Counted from the first letter of the stretch, positions 3,242 to 39,834 are shown. The stretch is DNA of 39,834 bases from a virus (IMGVR_UViG_2563366858_000008); one strand, 5' to 3'. Numbers and translations: made by a program. The notes: generated by a model not told the origin, from the sequence alone.

Positions 3242-5182
3242 ATGTCTTATTTAAAATACAGAACAGATATTGATGGGCTGCGAGCTATTGCGGTTTTGCT
3301 GGTCGTGCTGTACCACGCAAACTTTCCTATTCATGGTGGTTTTATTGGTGTAGATGTTTTTTTCGTCATATCAGGATATCTCATTACCAACATCATATAT
3401 AAAGAGACTAAAAGAAATATTTTTTCATTCCTTAATTTTTACAAACGTCGAATAAAGCGATTGCTCCCAGCTTTTGCTTTTCTTCTTTTATTTTTATTTG
3501 TTTACTGCAAATTATATTTGATGCCAGATGAACTTATATCATTCTCTAAAAGTGCGGTATACGCTCTTCTTGGCATAAGCAATTTCTATTTTTTTAGTGG
3601 CACAGGTTACTTTAACTCAACCTCTTATGAACCGCTTTTACACACATGGTCGCTTTCCGTTGAAGAGCAGTTCTACATTGTATGGCCTTTCATCGTTTTC
3701 ATGCTCGCTCGGAACTCAGGGACAAAAAAAGCAATAATAATATCCTCATTACTATTTATTGTATTCCTTGGTATTTCACAGTATGGAGCAGTTAATTATA
3801 AAACAGCAGCGTATCTCCTACTGCCTTTTAGGTTCTTTGAGTTGCTCTCAGGTGCCCTACTTGCTATCTATAAAGATTCAATAACAAAACATCTGCGCCA
3901 CGGTTCTGTAATTTCACTGGTCGGCGTAATGCTGATTGTGTTGAGTTCATTATTTATAAATTCTAACACGCCATTTCCTGGGTTCACTGTTTTGCCTACA
4001 TGTTTAGGCGCTGTAATGCTTATTGCTGCAGGTGACTCATCCAAAAACTTCATTTCTAAAGTGCTGTCTTTAACTCCAGTTGTTTATGTAGGAAGAATTT
4101 CCTACTCTCTTTATTTATGGCACTGGCCTGTACTGATTCTTGCTGAATACAGGGGGATCGATCTTACGGCCTTAAATGCGACGGCGCTCATACTTATCGC
4201 ATTCATCATGGCAAGCATAAGCTATCACTTCGTTGAAAAGCCATTTAGGAAGGATTCGCTGCAATATTTCAGGACTGCATTTATAACCATCTACCTGATA
4301 CCATTAATAGTATCCGCTGCCTATGCAGCGTACATTTTAAAAAATGATGGTTTTCGCGCCAAAAGTTCAGAGTTAGTATCTGAATTAGAAGAGAGAAACG
4401 CGACAAATATTATGCGCCCACAGTGTATTGATAAATTATTTATCGGTAATGTAAATGACTGTCATCTTGGCGTTAATAAAGGCGAAGTAGATGGCGTGCT
4501 TCTTGGTGACTCCTTTGGTAATGCATATGCTTACTTTATTGATGAACTTGCGAAAGATGCTGGAATATCAATAACAGATACTACATATAGCTCAACACCT
4601 GTAATATCAGGAATTTATGTGCAGGATATCAGGAATAAGATATCTGACATAGATGCTAACCTGATAATGACATATACAAAAAACAGGCTGGAGTATGCAG
4701 CAAAACAAAAGTTCGCGATAATTTCCGTTTTTTGGGATCAGTACGGGCCACAAAATAATTACTTCCGTATCTTCGATAAAAACGGTGACGTATCGGAGAA
4801 TGCTTACCAGTTGCAATCTGAAGCAATAAAATATCTGCTGTCCAATGGCGTGAAAGTTTACATCATTGCAAGACCTTACCAGTCTATTGGCCCTGCTGCG
4901 ATAAACAAACTGCGCCAAATTAAGCTGCGGCATGGGGATGTAACTACTGAAAAATATGAATACGGCGTAAAGAAAGATGATCGGATAGAATACAAGTTAA
5001 AGCAGGAGTTCCCTCAGATAACGCTAATCGATCCTAACGATGTACTTTGCCACAAAGGGGAATGTGATGCCATCGTGGATGGAAAGATCATTTTCAGAAC
5101 TGATGGTTCACACCTGAATGCTGTTGGAGCAAAAAAAATCGGGGAAGAGTATTTGAAAAACTACGCAAACCCATTTCGATAA
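3242..5182 (+). CDS. O-antigen O-acetyltransferase, acyltransferase-3 membrane domain plus SGNH domain (OafA/Oac-like); lysogenic conversion
   Basis: N-terminal multi-TM domain with conserved YRxDIDGLRAIAV...H motif; C-terminal GDSFG (SGNH) motif; 646 aa; AT-rich relative to neighbours. Confidence 0.85.
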   Translation: MSYLKYRTDIDGLRAIAVLLVVLYHANFPIHGGFIGVDVFFVISGYLITNIIYKETKRNIFSFLNFYKRRIKRLLPAFAFLLLFLFVYCKLYLMPDELISFSKSAVYALLGISNFYFFSGTGYFNSTSYEPLLHTWSLSVEEQFYIVWPFIVFMLARNSGTKKAIIISSLLFIVFLGISQYGAVNYKTAAYLLLPFRFFELLSGALLAIYKDSITKHLRHGSVISLVGVMLIVLSSLFINSNTPFPGFTVLPTCLGAVMLIAAGDSSKNFISKVLSLTPVVYVGRISYSLYLWHWPVLILAEYRGIDLTALNATALILIAFIMASISYHFVEKPFRKDSLQYFRTAFITIYLIPLIVSAAYAAYILKNDGFRAKSSELVSELEERNATNIMRPQCIDKLFIGNVNDCHLGVNKGEVDGVLLGDSFGNAYAYFIDELAKDAGISITDTTYSSTPVISGIYVQDIRNKISDIDANLIMTYTKNRLEYAAKQKFAIISVFWDQYGPQNNYFRIFDKNGDVSENAYQLQSEAIKYLLSNGVKVYIIARPYQSIGPAAINKLRQIKLRHGDVTTEKYEYGVKKDDRIEYKLKQEFPQITLIDPNDVLCHKGECDAIVDGKIIFRTDGSHLNAVGAKKIGEEYLKNYANPFR

Positions 5183-24435: not shown

Positions 24436-24450
24436 TTACCTTTAAGGTAA
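24436..24450. promoter_or_regulatory. Operator-like inverted repeat TTACCTTTAAGGTAA (perfect)
   Basis: Perfect TTACC-N5-GGTAA in the noncoding region upstream of the tRNA. Confidence 0.6.
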
Positions 24451-24772: not shown

Positions 24773-24849
24773 GTGGCATTAGCTCAGTTGGACAGAGCAA
24801 CCGCCTTCTAAGCGGTTGGTCGCAGGTTCGAATCCTGCATGCCACGCCA
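24773..24849 (+). tRNA. tRNA-Arg (anticodon UCU), phage-encoded
   Basis: Full cloverleaf: acceptor GTGGCAT/ATGCCAC, D-arm GCTC/GAGC, anticodon stem ACCGC/GCGGT with loop CTTCTAA, T-arm GCAGG-TTCGAAT-CCTGC, discriminator G and encoded CCA. Confidence 0.95.
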
Positions 24850-26990: not shown

Positions 26991-27583
26991 TGATTGCCAT
27001 CCTGACGTTCTTTCAGTCTCTTCCTGGCTGCCGCTATGCGATCAGCAATTGTCACATTCACATTAACATCCAGGCGTTCTTTGAACGCGTTGACATCAAC
27101 ATGCTTACCAATCAGCTCAAGGTTCTTCACCTTGTCAGGCCATTTAATTTTTTTGAGGATTGTCTCTATCGAATCCTCGTTCATGTTCATGATGGTCGAT
27201 GACAGATCAAAGCCACTAAGCGTAGTGCGCCAGATTTTCGGCCACTCACGGATTGGTTTAAGGCTCCCATCGTCGTTGAGGATATCGATCACGTCCATCT
27301 GGTCGATCTCCACCAGGCGCATGAGAACGTAATCAGCACTGACGCGCATTCGTTTGTTGCGCTCCTCCATCAACTCGGCAATCCGTTTTTGAATGCGTAC
27401 ATCGCGCATCATGACACTGGCTTTAACTGCCGCTGTATTTGGGGAGAACCCTGCGTTAATCGCTGCCTGAGTCTGGTTTTCAGGCGTTTTGATGTATGAC
27501 TGGCAATAAGCCTCCTGCATTGCTGTGAGCGGCTTAAATTGCGTTGATTTGCGTTTATAGGTTTTAGGTTCAGCAGGCATCAT
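26987..27583 (-). CDS. Terminase small subunit
   Basis: Start MMPAEPK at ATG 27583 (the track's N-terminal extension to 27661 crosses a terminator and operator repeats); motif QEAYCQSYIKT...AAINAGFS typical of small subunits. Confidence 0.75.
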   Translation of the reverse strand: MMPAEPKTYKRKSTQFKPLTAMQEAYCQSYIKTPENQTQAAINAGFSPNTAAVKASVMMRDVRIQKRIAELMEERNKRMRVSADYVLMRLVEIDQMDVIDILNDDGSLKPIREWPKIWRTTLSGFDLSSTIMNMNEDSIETILKKIKWPDKVKNLELIGKHVDVNAFKERLDVNVNVTIADRIAAARKRLKERQDGNQ

Positions 27584-31431: not shown

Positions 31432-31446
31432 TTACCTCTAAGGTAA
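31432..31446. promoter_or_regulatory. Operator-like inverted repeat TTACCTCTAAGGTAA (perfect)
   Basis: Overlaps RBS/leader of the 31084..31428 gene. Confidence 0.6.
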
Positions 31447-34523: not shown

Positions 34524-34550
34524 AAGCCGCCTCATGGCGGCTTTTTTATT
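34524..34550 (+). terminator. Intrinsic terminator after the repressor gene
   Basis: AAGCCGCC-tcat-GGCGGCTT followed by TTTTTATT. Confidence 0.75.
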
Positions 34551-34560
34551 GCCAGCAAGA

Positions 34561-34575
34561 TTACCTTATGGGTAA
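34561..34575. promoter_or_regulatory. Operator site TTACCTTATGGGTAA (perfect)
   Basis: Upstream flank of the early-left promoter. Confidence 0.65.
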
Positions 34576-34594: not shown

Positions 34595-34622
34595 TTGACA
34601 TCAAACCAGATACGCATAATCA
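34595..34622 (+). promoter_or_regulatory. Early-left promoter (PL-like)
   Basis: TTGACA, 16-bp spacer, TAATCA; bracketed by operator sites at 34561 and 34623. Confidence 0.55.
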
Positions 34623-34637
34623 TTACCTCAACGGTAA
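34623..34637. promoter_or_regulatory. Operator site TTACCTCAACGGTAA (perfect)
   Basis: Immediately after the -10; would cover the transcription start. Confidence 0.65.
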
Positions 34638-34656
34638 CAGACCGAGGTAACAAATT

Positions 34657-34809
34657 ATGCAGTGGAAAATCATCAACGGTTGGTACTGCGTTACTGCATG
34701 CGGATTCATGAGCTGGAAGTTCCGCACCTTACAGGAAGGCATTAAGTGGGCTTTCGTCAGCAAAGAAGCTCGCGATGTGGCCAACGATAACGAGATATGG
34801 GAGGGCTGA
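34657..34809 (+). CDS. Small first gene of the early-left operon (50 aa)
   Basis: GAGGTAA RBS 6 nt before ATG; Trp-rich peptide; below the ORF-track length cut-off. Confidence 0.4.
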   Translation: MQWKIINGWYCVTACGFMSWKFRTLQEGIKWAFVSKEARDVANDNEIWEG

Positions 34810-34811
34810 TA

Positions 34812-35111
34812 ATGAACGTTAATCAGCAGAAAAATCTTCAAAAAATCATGCTGGCATTCGACAAGGACTACCGCCTGTCAGAACAGCTATATGACCGACA
34901 AGTTGAACTGATTGAGAGCATCCGACTTCATCAACTGTCCTCAACTTTCGACGTTGTAACAGGCAAAGGCGTTCGCCAGGAAGTACTGGAGGCTGCTAAA
35001 GACAGCCCTGAGTTCGAAGAACTGATGGATGCCTATCGGCGAGAGGCAATGGCAATTATCGCCCGCTGGGATCTGGCGGATCAGCTTGATGGACAGAGGG
35101 ACGCGGCATGA
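34812..35111 (+). CDS. Hypothetical early protein
   Basis: Start MNVNQQK with GGGAGGG RBS; stop overlaps exonuclease start (ATGA). Confidence 0.5.
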   Translation: MNVNQQKNLQKIMLAFDKDYRLSEQLYDRQVELIESIRLHQLSSTFDVVTGKGVRQEVLEAAKDSPEFEELMDAYRREAMAIIARWDLADQLDGQRDAA

Positions 35112-36007
35112 TGCGGAACGCTGGAATCATGGATAGAACAAAATACATCGGAGGAAGCGATGTTGCAGGGATTCTTGGAATTAGCCCATGGCGCACCCCG
35201 CTTGAGGTTTATCTGGATAAGGTCCAGCCACGTGTCAAACCAGTAGACCCAAGCAAGCAGAAAGTTTTCACGCGTGGCCAGCGTATGGAGCCATACGTAA
35301 TAGACCTGCTTTCTGAGGAAACAGGGATGGAAATCGTTCATCGCGGAAACCGCTATATCCACCGTGATTACGATTTTATTGCAGCTGAGATCGATGCAGA
35401 AGCAGCGTCAGGCGAGAACATTGAGATCAAAACAGTTAGTCCGTTCAAAGCCAAAGAATGGGGAGAAATCCAGACAGATGCAATTCCTGTGCATTACACG
35501 GCCCAGGCCATGCACGGGTTGATGGTTACAAACAAACAGGTATGCGTTTTCGGTGTGCTTATCGGTGGCGACGACTTCCGAATCTATCGGGTTGAGCGTG
35601 ATGAAGAAACTATCCAGGCGATCTTAGAAAAAGAAATCGCTTTCTGGGACCGAGTGAAAAATCTTAACCCGCCGGAAGCTACCAGCGTAAGCGATGTATC
35701 GCTGATGTTTGAGAAAGATGCCGGGACAAGTATCGAGGCTGACGGAAAGGCACTCTCACTATTCAACGATCTACGAGACATGAAGTCACGCAGAAAATCA
35801 CTGGAAGAAGAAATAGCTATATCAGAAGAGAAGCTGAAGATGTACATGCAAGAGCACTCAGTCCTGACCCTGGACGGAAAGCCGCTCTGCACATGGAAAT
35901 CTCAGATCAGCAACAGATTCGACCAGAAGCTATTCCAGTCAGTACACCCTGAGTTATTCGAAAAATTCAAAACAACAACGACACAACGCGTCTTCAGAAT
36001 GAAGTAA
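35108..36007 (+). CDS. YqaJ-like recombination exonuclease (lambda Exo-type)
   Basis: N-terminal YIGGSDVAGILGISPWRTPLEVY motif typical of YqaJ-type exonucleases; immediately upstream of RecT. Confidence 0.8.
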   Translation: MMRNAGIMDRTKYIGGSDVAGILGISPWRTPLEVYLDKVQPRVKPVDPSKQKVFTRGQRMEPYVIDLLSEETGMEIVHRGNRYIHRDYDFIAAEIDAEAASGENIEIKTVSPFKAKEWGEIQTDAIPVHYTAQAMHGLMVTNKQVCVFGVLIGGDDFRIYRVERDEETIQAILEKEIAFWDRVKNLNPPEATSVSDVSLMFEKDAGTSIEADGKALSLFNDLRDMKSRRKSLEEEIAISEEKLKMYMQEHSVLTLDGKPLCTWKSQISNRFDQKLFQSVHPELFEKFKTTTTQRVFRMK

Positions 36008-36016
36008 GGAGAAAAA

Positions 36017-37039
36017 ATGTCTATCAATGCACTTAAGGCAGCGGCTACCGGTAACCAAGTTGCACATCATAATGAGAAACCAACAACTCTGGCCGGACTT
36101 CTGGCAGACCCAAAAATTAAAGCTCAGATGGCTTTGGCACTTCCAAAGCACATGACAGCAGACCGTCTGGCGCGCATAGCAACCACAGAGATCCGAAAGG
36201 TTCCAAAACTTGCATCATGCGACCAAGCCAGCTTCCTGGGGGCAATTATGCAATGTGCCCAATTGGGTCTTGAACCAGGCGGAGCTCTTGGACACGCTTA
36301 CCTGATACCGTTCGACAAACGCCAGAAAGTAAATGGAAGATGGGAAACCGTATCTACAGAAGCACAGCTGATTATCGGCTATCGCGGAATGATTGACCTT
36401 GCCCGCCGCTCTGGGCAGATCCTGAGTATCTCAGCTCGTACCGTACATACAAACGACAAATTCAGCTACTCATACGGCATGGAAGAAACGCTCGAGCATT
36501 TACCTTGCGAAACAGGTGACCGCGGAGAATTAACACACGTTTACGCCGTTGCACGACTGAAAGATGGCGGAGTCCAATTTGAAGTTATGAGCCGGGCAGA
36601 CGTTGAGAAAGTTCGTGCACTGAGCAAAGCCGGTAGCAGTGGCCCATGGGTTGATCACTTCGATGAGATGGCTAAAAAAACAGTAATTCGCCGACTGTTC
36701 AAATATCTTCCTGTTTCTATTGAAATGCAGAAGGCTGTTGTTATGGATGAGCGCGCTGAAGCTGGACTTAGCCAAGATAACGCAGCTGTTATCACTGGTG
36801 AATATTCCGTAGTTGACGATGAGCGTCAACACCTATCGCCAATTTCAGATTCAGAACGAGAAGAAGCTCGAGAATATATCATCGCGATACTTAATAGCCT
36901 GGATCCATCTGCTGAAGATGCAAAAACGATGTTCAAGCGCGCTGAAAATGAAATTAACACCATGGCTGAAAAGCTCGGTGATGAATATCACCAAAAATTC
37001 ATGATGACGCTTAACGATATGCGTCCAGAATTCGAGTAA
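36017..37039 (+). CDS. recT: RecT-family single-strand annealing recombinase
   Basis: Long segments (LPKHMTADRLARIATTEIRKVP, LIIGYRGMIDLARRSGQI, VYAVARLKDGG, GPWVDHFDEMAKKT) match E. coli RecT as recalled; AGGAG RBS. Confidence 0.9.
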   Translation: MSINALKAAATGNQVAHHNEKPTTLAGLLADPKIKAQMALALPKHMTADRLARIATTEIRKVPKLASCDQASFLGAIMQCAQLGLEPGGALGHAYLIPFDKRQKVNGRWETVSTEAQLIIGYRGMIDLARRSGQILSISARTVHTNDKFSYSYGMEETLEHLPCETGDRGELTHVYAVARLKDGGVQFEVMSRADVEKVRALSKAGSSGPWVDHFDEMAKKTVIRRLFKYLPVSIEMQKAVVMDERAEAGLSQDNAAVITGEYSVVDDERQHLSPISDSEREEAREYIIAILNSLDPSAEDAKTMFKRAENEINTMAEKLGDEYHQKFMMTLNDMRPEFE

Positions 37040-37088
37040 CCACCACCGCGGCGCCACGTGCGCCTCACTGCAACCAAGAGAGGTATTC

Positions 37089-37337
37089 ATGAAAGGTGCA
37101 TTAGGTAAGAAAGAACTCCTGGCGGTGGTGCCACTGTCATGGAGCACTATCGACCGTATGGAGCGCGCAGGGGAATTTCCTAAACGCTGGTATATCACCG
37201 ATAAACGCTGCGCATGGAACCGTGACGAAGTTGAGCGTTGGCTTGATGAACGTCAGGCAGCAAGCCCGGCAGAGTTCCAGGGTAAAAAGCCTCCTGTTCA
37301 GCAACGTGTATATCGTCCTGTGAGCAACGCTGCATGA
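37089..37337 (+). CDS. AlpA-family DNA-binding protein (excisionase/regulator-like)
   Basis: Motif MERAGEFPKRWYITDKRCAWNRDEVERWL typical of AlpA-type proteins; GAGAGG RBS. Confidence 0.65.
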   Translation: MKGALGKKELLAVVPLSWSTIDRMERAGEFPKRWYITDKRCAWNRDEVERWLDERQAASPAEFQGKKPPVQQRVYRPVSNAA

Positions 37338-37446
37338 GTGCGCTGCTAAGGCACTGGAGCAAATGGTCAGGATGGTACTTATTCCTGGCCTCTGTTTCAG
37401 CATGGCTTTATCTGCTGGCATTAATTTTCAGAGAGGGTTGGATTAA

Positions 37447-37746
37447 GTGAGAAAGTTAAGCCGACTTGAAAAATATCACATGAACAAGGTTTCAATGCGC
37501 AGTCCGTCAAAGATTGTCGCCGTTACTCCTGCGGCGATAGAGATCGAAAAACGCGCGATTGAAAGAGAGAAAAAAGGGCAGTTCCGCATTGCCGCTCACC
37601 TTTGGCTTCAGTGTATGGATGTTGCTTCTGGTGATGTTGAGCGTGCAAGGATCGCGGTTCGCAGGGACCAATGTATCACAAAAGGTAACGGCCTTCGCCG
37701 TGGCGACTATAGCGGCATAGGATGTTGTGGGGTGGTTTATGACTAA
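37447..37746 (+). CDS. Hypothetical protein
   Basis: ORF with GTG start (alternative ATG at 37480); overlaps methyltransferase start; no recognised motifs. Confidence 0.35.
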   Translation: MRKLSRLEKYHMNKVSMRSPSKIVAVTPAAIEIEKRAIEREKKGQFRIAAHLWLQCMDVASGDVERARIAVRRDQCITKGNGLRRGDYSGIGCCGVVYD

Positions 37747-38389
37747 GAAATACACACTAATCTATGCAGATCCACCCTGGGTATACCGGGACAAAGCCGC
37801 AGATGGTAATCGCGGTGCCGGTTTTAAATATCCGGTTATGAGTGTGCTGGACATCTGCCGCCTTCCTGTGTGGGATTTGGCCGATGAAAACTGTCTGTTG
37901 GCCATGTGGTGGGTGCCAACACAACCACTCGAAGCACTAAAAGTTGTTGAAGCCTGGGGATTCCGTCTGATGACCATGAAGGGATTCACGTGGATAAAAT
38001 GTGGTAGTCGACAACCAGATAAACTGGTTATGGGTATGGGTCACATGACTCGCGCCAATAGTGAAGATTGCCTGTTTGCGGTAAAGGGAAAACTACCTCC
38101 GCGCATTAATGCAGGGATCGTTCAGTCATTTACCGCACCGCGACTTGAGCATTCAAGAAAACCAGATGTCGTTCGTGAAAAACTTGTGCAATTGTTAGGC
38201 GATGTTTCTCGCATTGAACTGTTCGCCCGCCAGTCGTCTCATGGCTTCGATGTTTGGGGTAATCAGTGCGAAGACTCGGCAGTGCAACTACACCCTGGAT
38301 ACGCGTTGGATATTGGCGGATTAACAAATGCATTCAGCAATTCTCCGCTGTCACCAACAGACAACCAGGGGCGGGAGCGTGCAGCATGA
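37739..38389 (+). CDS. DNA N6-adenine methyltransferase, MT-A70-like
   Basis: Catalytic DPPW motif near N-terminus (LIYADPPWVY); about 216 aa; alternative GTG start at 37727. Confidence 0.8.
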   Translation: MTKKYTLIYADPPWVYRDKAADGNRGAGFKYPVMSVLDICRLPVWDLADENCLLAMWWVPTQPLEALKVVEAWGFRLMTMKGFTWIKCGSRQPDKLVMGMGHMTRANSEDCLFAVKGKLPPRINAGIVQSFTAPRLEHSRKPDVVREKLVQLLGDVSRIELFARQSSHGFDVWGNQCEDSAVQLHPGYALDIGGLTNAFSNSPLSPTDNQGRERAA

Positions 38390-38580
38390 ACAGGGCATCA
38401 CCAGCAGATTTAAGGAAATGCCTTGAAACTGCAAACATGCTTGCACACAGCGGGATCAGGTTTGTTCCAATTCCCGCTGTCACTGATGCTGAATTTGCAA
38501 CACTGTCAGCAATATTCACAGATAAAATTGAATCACTGGCAGCAGAAGCCGAGATGGAAGAAAATCAGCAGAATAATTAA
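38386..38580 (+). CDS. Small protein translationally coupled to the methyltransferase
   Basis: ATG overlaps methyltransferase TGA (ATGA); 64 aa. Confidence 0.45.
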   Translation: MNRASPADLRKCLETANMLAHSGIRFVPIPAVTDAEFATLSAIFTDKIESLAAEAEMEENQQNN

Positions 38581-38583
38581 ACG

Positions 38584-39834
38584 TTATTCCTCCGCCATCC
38601 ACTTCTCAAACTTCGACGGGGAGAACGGAATCAGATCCGTATGCTCCCCGTTAATCCAGGAATCAATCATATCGGCCCACTGCTGCAACATGTAGGCGCG
38701 CTGTCTGGCGTATTCCGCTTTGTTATATACGGCGCGCACACCTTTCTGCTCATGTGCCAGAGCCTTTTCAATCCAGTCTGAAGGATAACCAGCCTCATGC
38801 AACAACGTACTGGCTGTACGGCGCATATCATGTACAGTGAAGTCCTGAATATGATCACCATCTTCATTTATTATTTTCACCGTTCTGTCGATCAGAGAGT
38901 TCAGCGCGGCATTAGATAATGGCTTCCGGAAATTGTAACGACCAGGAACCAGATATTCACTTCCACCAGCGCACATCTGCAACCCGATTAATATATCCTG
39001 TGCCTGTTTAGGCAGGTAAATAACGTGCGCCCGACTTCCCTTCATGCGGTCTGAAGGAATTGTCCATGTCCATTTTTTAAAATCTATTTCATCCCACGTT
39101 GCATTGGTGAATTCGCCTTTACGAACCATAGTGATAAGCACCAGCTTTAAAGCCATTTTCATAGTGCCCATAGCACCAATGGCATCCAGCGTGCGGAAGA
39201 ACAGACCAATTTCTTCTGGTGTCAGTGTTCGCTCTCGTGGTTTAAATATGGCGATAGACGAAGGTTTAATGTCAGCCGCAGGATTAAACAAACCATGACC
39301 ACGGTCATTGGCGTGACGGTATACGCTGCTGATGATCTCCCTGGCCTGCACTGCTGTTGCCCGACCACCGCGTTCGACAATCCGGTCACACAAATCACGA
39401 ACCATCGATGTGGTAATTTCAGCCATTATTTTGTTGCCAAGAACCGGAAGTATGTCACGGTCGATCACCGCCTGCTTCATTGCGCGGGTACTGTCAGCCA
39501 GGATGACGTGTTTCATATAACTGTCGGTATGTACCGCAAACGTCTCGGCACCACGAATCTTTTTGATACCGTCACGTTTAGCCGCAGCCGGCGACTGGCC
39601 TGCTTTAAGCAGCTTCTTTGCAGCAATCAGTTCTTCTCGCGCTTCTGCCAGGCTGATACCGTCACGCCCATACTGCCCGATTACCAGTGTTTCGCGGCGA
39701 CCGTTGATACGGTAGTCATAGCGAAACGAGACCGTGCCTGACGTAAGCACAGCTACATACAGCCCGTCACGATCGGAGACCTTGTACAGTTTGTCCTGCG
39801 GCTTGAGGTTTTTTAATTTTGTATCGGTAAGCAC
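38584..39834 (-). CDS. int: Tyrosine integrase, P4-like; start at window edge
   Basis: N-terminal LTDTKLKNLKP...YKVSDRDGLYVAV arm-binding-like domain; C-terminal HDMRRT and VYNKAEY catalytic Tyr region; GTG at 39832..39834, upstream context not visible. Confidence 0.9.
   Translation of the reverse strand: MLTDTKLKNLKPQDKLYKVSDRDGLYVAVLTSGTVSFRYDYRINGRRETLVIGQYGRDGISLAEAREELIAAKKLLKAGQSPAAAKRDGIKKIRGAETFAVHTDSYMKHVILADSTRAMKQAVIDRDILPVLGNKIMAEITTSMVRDLCDRIVERGGRATAVQAREIISSVYRHANDRGHGLFNPAADIKPSSIAIFKPRERTLTPEEIGLFFRTLDAIGAMGTMKMALKLVLITMVRKGEFTNATWDEIDFKKWTWTIPSDRMKGSRAHVIYLPKQAQDILIGLQMCAGGSEYLVPGRYNFRKPLSNAALNSLIDRTVKIINEDGDHIQDFTVHDMRRTASTLLHEAGYPSDWIEKALAHEQKGVRAVYNKAEYARQRAYMLQQWADMIDSWINGEHTDLIPFSPSKFEKWMAEE

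Follow-up and report, generated by a model that had tools for sequence, protein, structure and literature searches.

The stretch of DNA that was analysed (the window; 39,834 nucleotides) is, over its whole length, a complete phiV10/epsilon15-like (Uetakevirus) prophage inserted at the 3' end of guaA, and E. coli isolate AF5 matches it at 100% identity, the operon stretch included. Its completeness is shown by the 17-bp att repeat found at the 3' end of guaA and by the presence of both att repeats together with a full structural gene set; sequenced phages such as phiV10, ZX5 and PAS61 share 97–98% identity with it, and one gene elsewhere in the prophage carries a frameshift annotation. Between a repressor-like gene and an oppositely oriented integrase gene lies a block of + strand genes (Table 1), which a first-pass annotation had read as a repressor-controlled early-left operon; the conservation of promoter and operators, the family matches, which far exceed chance, and the synteny bear out the core of that reading. 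The exonuclease, RecT, AlpA, MT-A70 and 64-aa genes that it listed are all present, but the PerC-family gene was overlooked.

Table 1. Features of the early-left block and its flanks (positions are counted from the first nucleotide of the window).
Feature	Position	Strand	Evidence or detail
Repressor-like protein, two HTH domains, 194 aa	33919–34503	+	HTH_3 E=1.2e-9 (Pfam); phrog_8 E=5.5e-27
Intrinsic terminator-like hairpin and T-run, end of repressor transcript	34524–34551	+	8-bp stem, 6 GC pairs, then TTTTTATT
Distal predicted operator TTACCTTATGGGTAA, 20 bp upstream of the -35 hexamer	34561–34575		perfect TTACC-N5-GGTAA
PL-like sigma-70 promoter, TTGACA-17 nt-AATCAT	34595–34623	+	10/12 consensus positions
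Proximal predicted operator TTACCTCAACGGTAA	34623–34637		perfect TTACC-N5-GGTAA; kept in six phages
50-aa protein, phiV10 gp39 / epsilon15 gp37	34657–34809	+	phrog_898 E=1.9e-38
99-aa acidic protein, phiV10 gp38	34812–35111	+	phrog_856 E=1.9e-55
YqaJ/lambda-exonuclease-family recombination nuclease, 299 aa	35108–36007	+	Pfam YqaJ E=2.7e-23; phrog_434 E=3.9e-112
RecT single-strand annealing protein, 340 aa	36017–37039	+	Pfam RecT E=3.6e-57
AlpA-family winged-helix protein, 82 aa	37089–37337	+	Phage_AlpA 24.2 bits vs cut-off 21; phrog_66 E=2e-16
38-aa membrane peptide, phiV10 gp35 / epsilon15 gp32	37334–37450	+	phrog_17484 E=2.6e-27
PerC-family protein, 99 aa from GTG 37447	37447–37746	+	Pfam PerC 30.1 bits vs 22.6
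MT-A70-family N6-adenine methyltransferase, 216 aa	37739–38389	+	Pfam MT-A70 E=7.6e-22; phrog_359 E=3.4e-120
Lambda Orf63 homologue (DUF1382), 64 aa	38386–38580	+	Pfam DUF1382 E=5.7e-30
P4-type tyrosine integrase, convergent with operon	38584–39834	-	

The repressor-like gene, which precedes the operon in the same orientation, is homologous to phiV10 gp40 and epsilon15 gp38, and no autocleavage domain is recognisable in its 194-aa product. The hairpin that follows it is kept in phiV10 and BUCT554, and a terminator is annotated at the equivalent place in phiV10. Downstream of this hairpin, the predicted sigma-70 promoter lies between two perfect palindromes whose centres are 62 bp apart, the proximal one abutting the -10 hexamer and spanning the likely transcription start. 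The window contains 13 copies of the palindrome TTACC-N5-GGTAA, where 0.62 would be expected, and the epsilon15 counterpart of the distal site bears a repressor-binding-site annotation. The promoter's match to consensus is by itself not significant (4 sites observed vs 7.3 expected); six phages, representing four host genera, share its CTATTGACA without change, the half-sites of the distal operator are unchanged across six phages, and the promoter is conserved in these six together with both bracketing operators. The proposal of an operator-controlled PL-like promoter is thus upheld as a prediction by the paired palindromes and their six-phage conservation.

Two small genes lead the operon. 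The first, previously noted as a small open reading frame, proves to be a real conserved gene, given its phrog_898 match and the codon-position distribution of its differences from epsilon15 (5/6/18, i.e., 18 of 29 at third positions). The second is retained in relatives upstream of three different nuclease types, and its stop codon overlaps the exonuclease start as ATGA. The exonuclease scores well above the profile cut-offs (YqaJ, 83.3 bits vs 22; TIGR03033, 88.7 vs 68.05), has an additional C-terminal domain of ~85 aa, and contains the segments EIDAEA and ENIEIKT, which may be read as D...ExK of the PD-(D/E)XK type; no PDB chain matches it by sequence at E<=1. RecT, on the other side of the pair, combines a Rac-RecT-like core (residues 4–274) with a 66-aa C-terminal extension, reaches equivalog level (NF007351, NCBIfam PRK09846, 425.4 bits vs 296; Pfam PF03837, 193.5 vs 24) and matches the PDB entry 7ub2, a RecT, at E=1.4e-9. 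Amino-acid identity to the epsilon15 proteins is 90% for the exonuclease and 93% for RecT. The earlier description of a Rac-like pair therefore stands for RecT, by its equivalog-level score, but not for the nuclease, which belongs to the YqaJ/lambda-exonuclease family; an assignment to RecE (Rac exonuclease VIII) was rejected, since the Pfam scan gave YqaJ alone. In PHROG, "RecE-like" is a family label, that is, a name.

Downstream of RecT, the expected AlpA-family protein is present by Pfam (PF05930, E=3.1e-5, barely over threshold), PHROG and PDB matches, the last to 8c3t, an "AlpA family phage regulatory protein", at E=1.8e-11. A possible 27-aa hydrophobic peptide (37363–37446) had been proposed behind it, which turns out to be the wrong frame of a conserved 38-aa gene: read in the 38-aa frame, the differences from epsilon15 are distributed 6/3/13 over the three codon positions, vs 13/6/3 in the 27-aa frame, the former frame matches phrog_17484 and is kept in five relatives, and the gene overlaps its neighbours on either side as ATGA and GTGA. 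The PerC-family gene (PF06069) is covered by phrog_868 over positions 1–99 of 99 (E=5.7e-62); RefSeq starts it at ATG 37495, and the N-terminal extension from GTG 37447 is conserved in epsilon15. At the end of the operon, the 64-aa protein scores 103.7 bits vs 27 with DUF1382 and matches PDB 8DSB, which is lambda Orf63, over residues 2–62 (E=5.8e-13). The two genes, described previously as coupled, share an ATGA at 38386–38389, where the methyltransferase gene stops and this one starts. The slot is variable and holds other small genes, or none, in relatives. The protein is a homologue of lambda Orf63 and not a conserved methyltransferase partner.

The methyltransferase consists of a minimal catalytic domain and a variable C-terminal tail. 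It scores 78.5 bits with MT-A70 (PF05063; cut-off 23.9) and matches the PADLOC model MTase_II at E=5.4e-77; its DPPW motif occupies residues 11–14, and 25–30 homologues show little or no variation in this motif and in the MT-A70 core. A structure model, moderately confident with a mean pLDDT of 71 (below 50 at residues 18–30 and 96–106), has a predicted fold resembling METTL3 and MTA1 in Foldseek (METTL3, E=1.5e-14, TM 0.62), and the best PDB sequence matches are to the Tetrahymena MTA1 family; database names and REBASE-derived models class the enzyme as a Type II DNA methyltransferase. No target-recognition domain is recognisable, so that the sequence gives no indication of specificity or of the type of substrate (dsDNA, ssDNA or RNA), and literature searches returned no experimental data, target or motif for any member of the clade. 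With over 2,000 cluster representatives in Enterobacterales, the family circulates in two loop variants and is also found at unrelated prophage sites, e.g., behind a lysis cassette. By annotation, none of the genes in the 40-kb prophage encodes a cognate restriction nuclease, and the neighbouring genes are all assigned to other families by Pfam and PHROG; together with DPPW and the family score, this agrees with the earlier designation of an orphan MT-A70 enzyme.

Gene for gene, the operon follows phiV10 gp39–gp32 and epsilon15 gp37–gp29, and an identical order is found in five annotated phages, namely phiV10, epsilon15, two Klebsiella phages and one Enterobacter phage. This is the Uetakevirus early-left order of repressor, small genes, recombination module, alpA, peptide, perC, MT-A70 and convergent P4-type int. 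All ten operon ORFs are intact and under purifying selection, a third-codon-position substitution bias relative to epsilon15 being seen in all operon genes, and the block is matched in 565 of 5426 complete E. coli genomes (~10%). It is the standard early-left operon of phiV10/epsilon15-type prophages of E. coli and Salmonella, its arrangement is not unusual, and it is already known, as public phage genomes carry its annotation.

With high probability, the block works as a conserved early-left (PL-type) operon of a phiV10/epsilon15-like temperate podovirus prophage, with silencing and gene roles as follows. In the lysogen, the upstream two-HTH repressor would bind the two TTACC-N5-GGTAA operators and keep the operon silent; upon infection or derepression, a single transcript would cover ten closely spaced genes, whose stop codons for the most part overlap the start of the next gene. 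The lambda-Exo-fold 5'-3' exonuclease and RecT would then carry out homologous recombination of phage DNA, the PerC-family protein is presumably a regulator, and the lambda Orf63-type protein may be a developmental modulator. The AlpA-family protein most likely acts together with the convergent P4-type integrase to direct excision. For the MT-A70 enzyme, the most likely role after derepression is to methylate phage DNA as it replicates, whereby progeny would resist restriction in the next host.

The role of the AlpA-family protein as an excisionase and regulator is probable from its position near the P4-type integrase gene, which is separated from the operon by 3 nt with no terminator predicted in between. 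Alternatively, it might be mainly a transcription factor, either an int activator (as CP4-57 AlpA) or an antiterminator (as Pseudomonas AlpA), and not an excisionase. This is a rather unlikely reading, for which it can be said that the Pfam family takes its name from a regulator, that the PHROG label is "excisionase and transcriptional regulator", and that int, being convergent and having its own upstream region with an operator-like site (located, in every relative, 42–43 bp before the start of int), needs separate control. However, AlpA/Vis/TorI-type proteins serve many P4-type integrases as recombination directionality factors, Pfam and PHROG searches give no other excisionase candidate in the operon, and the excisionase and regulator roles can coexist.

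Protective methylation has precedents in other prophage methyltransferases: M.EcoGI, M.EcoGII and M.EcoMV are reported to be silent in lysogens, and a role in shielding the element upon transfer has been proposed for such enzymes. Since an operator-flanked promoter precedes the gene here, comparing the methylomes of a lysogen and a cured strain would probably give a blank or uninformative result. A purpose in phage regulation rather than restriction protection, such as packaging-site licensing, replication timing or the lysis-lysogeny decision, is improbable, even though the gene is placed among regulators (the AlpA, PerC and Orf63 homologues), keeps its position in all five related phages examined, from four host genera with different restriction systems, and has a precedent in P1, which requires Dam methylation at its pac site. 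Against such a purpose, no methyl-sensitive site or motif was identified, the unrelated prophage locations of the family are the behaviour of a mobile accessory gene, and two loop variants suit a diversifying anti-restriction function more than a fixed regulatory site. It is more improbable still, to the point of being a slim chance, that the enzyme acts on ssDNA or RNA (recombination or replication intermediates, or transcripts) in the manner of METTL3-METTL14 and not on duplex phage DNA: the METTL3 catalytic domain is among the closest solved relatives of the predicted fold, the enzyme is a bare catalytic domain co-transcribed with an ssDNA-producing exonuclease/annealing pair, and METTL3-METTL14 is, per a review, more active on ssDNA than on ssRNA, but the Tetrahymena MTA1 family writes 6mA on duplex DNA, and the Type II DNA methyltransferase classification likewise opposes it. 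Finally, that the block is a decaying, non-functional remnant is scarcely credible: nothing specific favours it, the frameshift annotation above concerning one gene elsewhere in the prophage, and the ten intact ORFs under purifying selection, the att repeats and structural genes, and the 97–98% identity to sequenced phages all speak against decay.

Among known systems, the PL operon of lambda is a repressor-controlled leftward early operon with a recombination exonuclease, an annealing protein and an excision function near int. The operon in the window shares with it, the exo-xis region included, the predicted repressor control, the exonuclease, an annealing protein, an Orf63/DUF1382-type small gene and an excision candidate by int. 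Unlike lambda, it has no recognisable N-type antiterminator, its annealing protein is RecT instead of Beta, its excision candidate is AlpA-type instead of lambda Xis, its int is P4-type, convergent with the operon and outside it, and MT-A70 and PerC genes are added.

The methyltransferase shares DPPW, the class-beta motif order and the predicted fold with the METTL3 catalytic domain and Tetrahymena MTA1/AMT1, which differ in that each functions as a heterodimer, paired with an inactive paralogue and aided by accessory subunits that bind DNA or RNA, whereas the enzyme here is a single 216-aa protein with no paralogue adjoining. Similarly, M.EcoGI, M.EcoGII and Hia5 are prophage-borne, without cognate nuclease, silent in lysogens and regarded as protecting phage DNA, but the first two, each 349 aa long, are of class beta with DPPY and a target-recognition domain in the centre, and Hia5 is of class alpha; as the families differ, the non-specificity of these three is not transferable to the methyltransferase in the window.

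The closest counterparts are phiV10 (NC_007804) and epsilon15 (NC_004775). phiV10 gp39–gp32 shares gene order, operators, promoter, terminator and the convergent P4-type integrase, with ~98% nucleotide identity over 53% of the region, namely both flanks (the two small genes, alpA, and the 38-aa peptide, perC, MT-A70 and DUF1382 genes). It differs in having one 586-aa fused nuclease-annealing protein (gp37), for which BLASTP gives no similarity to the exonuclease and RecT of the window at E<1e-3, so that the recombination module has been swapped for a non-orthologous one. epsilon15 gp37–gp29 has a separate YqaJ-type exonuclease and RecT, as in the window, with 80% nucleotide identity from exo to the PerC gene. 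Its methyltransferase differs (192 aa, 77% identity, the other loop variant) and is preceded by a 35-aa gene and followed by a 60-aa "transacetylase repressor" in place of DUF1382, and its leader has an additional hairpin and a third operator. epsilon15 nevertheless shares the AlpA, 38-aa peptide and PerC genes, has an MT-A70 gene at the same position, and carries annotated repressor-binding sites with the same half-sites as the window.

The operon delineated at window positions 34657-38580 by the first-pass annotation is real and was for the most part read correctly; it corresponds to the early-left block already annotated in prophages of the phiV10 and epsilon15 type, which are common, and is widespread, being found in about one-tenth of complete E. 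coli genomes. The chromosome of E. coli isolate AF5 contains a 4.1-kb stretch around the operon at 100% identity, and this stretch is matched in 565 of 5426 complete E. coli genomes, with a coverage of at least 80% in 75. Among phages, phiV10 and its kin share about 98% identity with it over both flanks, and Salmonella phage epsilon15 shares 80% from the first small gene through the PerC gene; what is said here of these two phages is taken from their GenBank/RefSeq annotation. In AF5, the RefSeq annotation of the interval from guaA to yfgI/yfgH shows a complete prophage of the podovirus type, about 39 kb long, and the 17-bp direct repeat ATTGAGTGGGAATGATT, which corresponds to the 3' end of guaA and recurs in the window, is the attachment core. 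The first 1.1 kb or so of the window is host DNA (yfgH, yfgI), the window ends exactly at the integrase start codon, and the guaA copy of the repeat lies about 200 bp beyond that end; judging from the extent of the AF5 prophage and the repeat, the window therefore contains essentially the whole prophage.

Outside the operon, a segment with a GC content of 36-39%, compared with about 50%, coincides with an acyltransferase-family gene; this is probably, like the gene described for phiV10, a lysogenic-conversion gene that modifies the O antigen. A search of the window against Rfam returns nothing besides one tRNA, and PADLOC finds no defence-system matches except generic MTase_II models.

The open reading frames listed in the first-pass annotation are all present, and their family matches lie far beyond chance: Pfam returns YqaJ (E=2.7e-23), RecT (E=3.6e-57), MT-A70 (E=7.6e-22) and DUF1382 (E=5.7e-30), together with AlpA at E=3.1e-5 and 24.2 bits (cut-off 21), and PHROG families give strong E-values for every operon gene, including the 50-aa frame at the head of the operon, whose substitutions relative to epsilon15 are distributed 5/6/18 by codon position. 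An excess of third-position substitutions relative to epsilon15 is seen in every operon gene (e.g., 27/14/111 in the exonuclease and 38/20/102 in the methyltransferase), so all of them are coding and under purifying selection. At the junction of the methyltransferase with the 64-aa protein, stop and start codons overlap as ATGA, an arrangement that recurs at the junctions from the gp38-like gene to the exonuclease and from alpA to the 38-aa gene; the 38-aa gene and perC overlap as GTGA, and perC overlaps the methyltransferase gene by 8 nt. On a Logan contig, one gene call (P0001, 297 aa) runs the PerC and MT-A70 domains together in a single protein, with 100% identity to the methyltransferase of the window; the probable cause is an assembly error or a frameshift where the two genes overlap by 8 nt.

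Several small genes required correction. The 27-aa hydrophobic peptide suggested earlier is in the wrong frame, since its differences from epsilon15 run 13/6/3 by codon position as against 6/3/13 in an overlapping 38-aa frame, which is the conserved gene. This 38-aa product, MSALLRHWSKWSGWYLFLASVSAWLYLLALIFREGWIK, is matched end to end by phrog_17484 (E=2.6e-27), its counterparts are annotated as membrane proteins gp35 in phiV10 and gp32 in epsilon15, and the frame is open in five relatives with conservative changes; RefSeq leaves the gene without annotation. Downstream lies a PerC-family gene that had been left out (Pfam 30.1 bits, cut-off 22.6), for which RefSeq places the start at ATG 37495 (84 aa), and for which GTG 37447 (99 aa) is the alternative. 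With the latter start, the protein is covered in full by phrog_868 (residues 1-99 of 99) and epsilon15 retains the N-terminal extension, and GTG 37447 is therefore the better start; it also gives rise to the GTGA overlap. The 64-aa protein matches PDB 8DSB (E=5.8e-13) and is, by sequence homology, a homologue of lambda Orf63, which the paper on 8DSB describes as a DUF1382 dimeric early protein with pro-lytic effects. A role for DUF1382 as a conserved partner of the methyltransferase is rejected because the position after the methyltransferase is occupied by unrelated small genes or by none in epsilon15, two Klebsiella phages and one Enterobacter phage. The corrected calls for the 38-aa peptide, the 99-aa PerC protein and the Orf63 homologue are better than the RefSeq annotation of the locus.

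Coordinates of the features discussed (window positions unless a comparison locus is named: L002, phiV10; L004, epsilon15; L012, E. coli strain 2/0; L003 and L005-L007, other related phages or prophages)
Feature	Position	Remark
Host DNA	1-~1180	yfgH, yfgI
Second copy of attachment repeat	~1163-1179	
Low-GC segment	~3242-5182	acyltransferase-family gene
tRNA gene (annotated tRNA-Arg)	24773-24846	between terminase and portal regions, inside prophage
Terminator-like hairpin	34524-34543	between upstream repressor gene and promoter
Perfect TTACC-N5-GGTAA palindromes	34561-34575 and 34623-34637	bracket promoter
Promoter TTGACA-17-AATCAT	34595-34623	sigma-70-type consensus scan
Further palindromes (at most one mismatch)	2949, 3191, 7549, 24436, 27583, 27601, 31432, 31494, 33464, 33801, 33849	
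Extra leader of about 70 bp	L004 2415-2500	versus window 34638-34656
50-aa ORF	34657-34809	PHROG match
Exonuclease/RecT pair	35108-37039	
Fused nuclease-annealing protein	L002 3609-5369	586 aa
38-aa ORF	37334-37450	conserved gene
27-aa ORF	37363-37446	wrong frame
PerC-family gene	37447-37746	
DndB-family gene	L012 3776-4843	insertion point at window ~37746
Methyltransferase loop 1	37994-38041	residues 86-101
Methyltransferase loop 2	38105-38134	residues 123-132
Methyltransferase/64-aa junction	38386-38389	ATGA
Convergence of operon and int	38580-38584	gap of 3 nt
Operator-like site upstream of int	L003 1183-1197; L002 8207; L004 8071; L005 8198; L006 8186; L007 6083	L003 site just past window end

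The promoter match alone is without significance, as the scan gave fewer promoter-like sites than shuffled sequence. TTACC-N5-GGTAA with at most one mismatch, the palindrome that brackets the promoter, occurs 13 times in the window, as compared with 0.62 expected. When the promoter region is aligned with its counterparts in phiV10, epsilon15, two Klebsiella phages and an Enterobacter phage, no change is seen in CTATTGACA or in either operator half-site, and the epsilon15 equivalents of the operators are annotated as repressor-binding sites. The bracketing palindromes, their invariance in relatives and the epsilon15 annotation therefore establish the "operator-controlled PL-like promoter" of the first-pass annotation as real, with predicted operators. 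Among the further palindromes, the pair at 31432/31494 has the PL spacing of 62 bp and lies between the replication P gene and a DUF1064 gene, the adjacent pair at 27583/27601 is near the start of the small-terminase gene, and the site at 24436 has the tRNA gene on one side and the head genes on the other; by motif occurrence, more than two promoters may be under repressor control. Epsilon15 and the two Klebsiella phages possess an extra leader, absent from the window, phiV10 and BUCT554, that carries a hairpin (CCACC-N4-GTGG, then TTTC) and, immediately 5' of the first gene, a third operator.

The recombination pair had been called "Rac-like," a description that holds for RecT (NCBIfam RecT equivalog, 425 bits, cut-off 296) and fails for the nuclease, which is a member of the YqaJ/lambda-exonuclease family and not RecE; a PDB sequence search with the exonuclease gave no match. 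At the position of this pair, phiV10 instead encodes one fused nuclease-annealing protein, for which BLASTP shows no similarity to either member of the pair, and the Uetakevirus phages BUCT554 and BUCT711 carry a third type of nuclease/RecT pair, whereas the exonuclease and RecT of epsilon15 and Klebsiella phage ST512-KPC3phi13.3 are 90-93% identical to those of the window. The flanking genes are conserved across these phages, and the window thus combines phiV10-like flanks with an epsilon15-type recombination cassette. The module is a swapped, non-orthologous cassette of the kind produced by ordinary phage mosaicism, and this mosaic form is matched over at least 80% of the region in the 75 complete E. 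coli genomes. As a ready-made YqaJ-type exonuclease/RecT pair, it is a candidate for recombineering.

Beside the observed gene content, order, overlaps, predicted operators, conservation and purifying selection, a course of events can be proposed in which the two-HTH repressor would keep the promoter shut in the lysogen, and the operon would, upon derepression or infection, provide recombination functions, an excision factor, regulators and the methyltransferase, which would modify replicating phage DNA and thereby protect the progeny from restriction. Other prophage methyltransferases have been reported to be silent in lysogens and are presumed protective, which fits this proposal. With the operon silent in the lysogen, even an active enzyme would probably leave no difference between the methylomes of the lysogen and a cured strain. 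The operon and int converge with no predicted terminator between them, and in epsilon15 the two are separated by 154 nt with an annotated RNase III site. An operator-like ATACC-N5-GGTAA stands 42-43 bp upstream of the int start in six of six related phages or prophages, and its conservation suggests that int is under direct repressor control from a promoter of its own. Read-through from the early-left promoter, antisense to int, may also meet int transcription.

The methyltransferase comprises 216 aa with DPPW at residues 11-14, a conserved core of about 175 residues, a variable tail of about 40 residues and no separate target-recognition domain; the AF5 prophage annotation lists no restriction enzyme. 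Its homologues (E<=1e-5) form 2239 cluster representatives, every named one of which is from Enterobacterales and some of which are named "adenine methylase" or "S-adenosylmethionine-binding protein." All five relatives have an MT-A70 gene in this place, which makes it a standard feature of the genus rather than something specific to this prophage; a 74%-identical homologue lies after the lysis cassette in other E. coli prophages, so the gene also behaves as a mobile accessory gene. A literature search for the recognition sequence of any family member found none. M.EcoGI and M.EcoGII (349-aa DPPY class-beta enzymes of another family), M.EcoGIX (plasmid-borne and single-strand-specific), and Hia5 and Hin1523 (class alpha) are rejected as homologues, and properties such as the promiscuity of M.EcoGI, M.EcoGII and Hia5 are accordingly not transferable. 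The motif of so common a prophage enzyme could have consequences for the host range of phages, for phage therapy and for reporter phages based on phiV10, as well as for the interpretation of methylomes from induced cultures.

Within the family, two short segments each come in two forms, which vary together. Loop 1 reads IKCGSRQPDKLVMGMG in the window versus HKTNKH-KGNSAIGMG in epsilon15, and loop 2 reads INAGIVQSFT versus LDASICQHVT; among 118 representatives, both loops are of the window type in 29 and of the epsilon15 type in 82, with 7 mixed. Loop type and core similarity do not go hand in hand, as a 74%-identical core can have the window-type loop 1, whereas a 92%-identical N-terminal part can have the other type. 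From these alignments, the two loops may be specificity determinants and are candidate cassettes. Directly upstream of the methyltransferase, and overlapping it, 21 of the 5426 complete E. coli genomes encode a 355-aa DndB-family (DGQHR) protein, and in 12 of 12 of the matches listed the aligned region takes in both the DGQHR and the MT-A70 annotation. In E. coli strain 2/0, this gene (Pfam DndB, E=2.3e-46) is an insertion with perC on one side and the MT-A70 gene on the other, and it shares 4 nt with the start of the methyltransferase.

The nearest solved proteins by sequence are the Tetrahymena MTA1-family 6mA DNA methyltransferases (E about 4e-13), followed by METTL3. The AlphaFold model (mean pLDDT 71, pTM 0.70; residues 18-30 and 96-106 disordered) resembles the METTL3 and MTA1 catalytic domains (Foldseek E=1.5e-14, TM about 0.62); loop 1 overlaps a low-confidence region, and the target motif is not inferable from the model because the putative recognition loops are its low-confidence parts. 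A bolder reading, judged improbable as a whole, is that these proteins are modular minimal 6mA writers, in which the two loops form co-varying cassettes shuffled relative to the core and the upstream slot can take a translationally coupled DndB/ParB-fold partner, as in the 21 E. coli genomes; two target motifs, different and probably short, may be determined by the cassettes, and the partner might target or regulate the methyltransferase. Should this reading be true, the modular phage MT-A70 enzymes would be in bacteria what the multi-subunit MT-A70 complexes are in eukaryotes.
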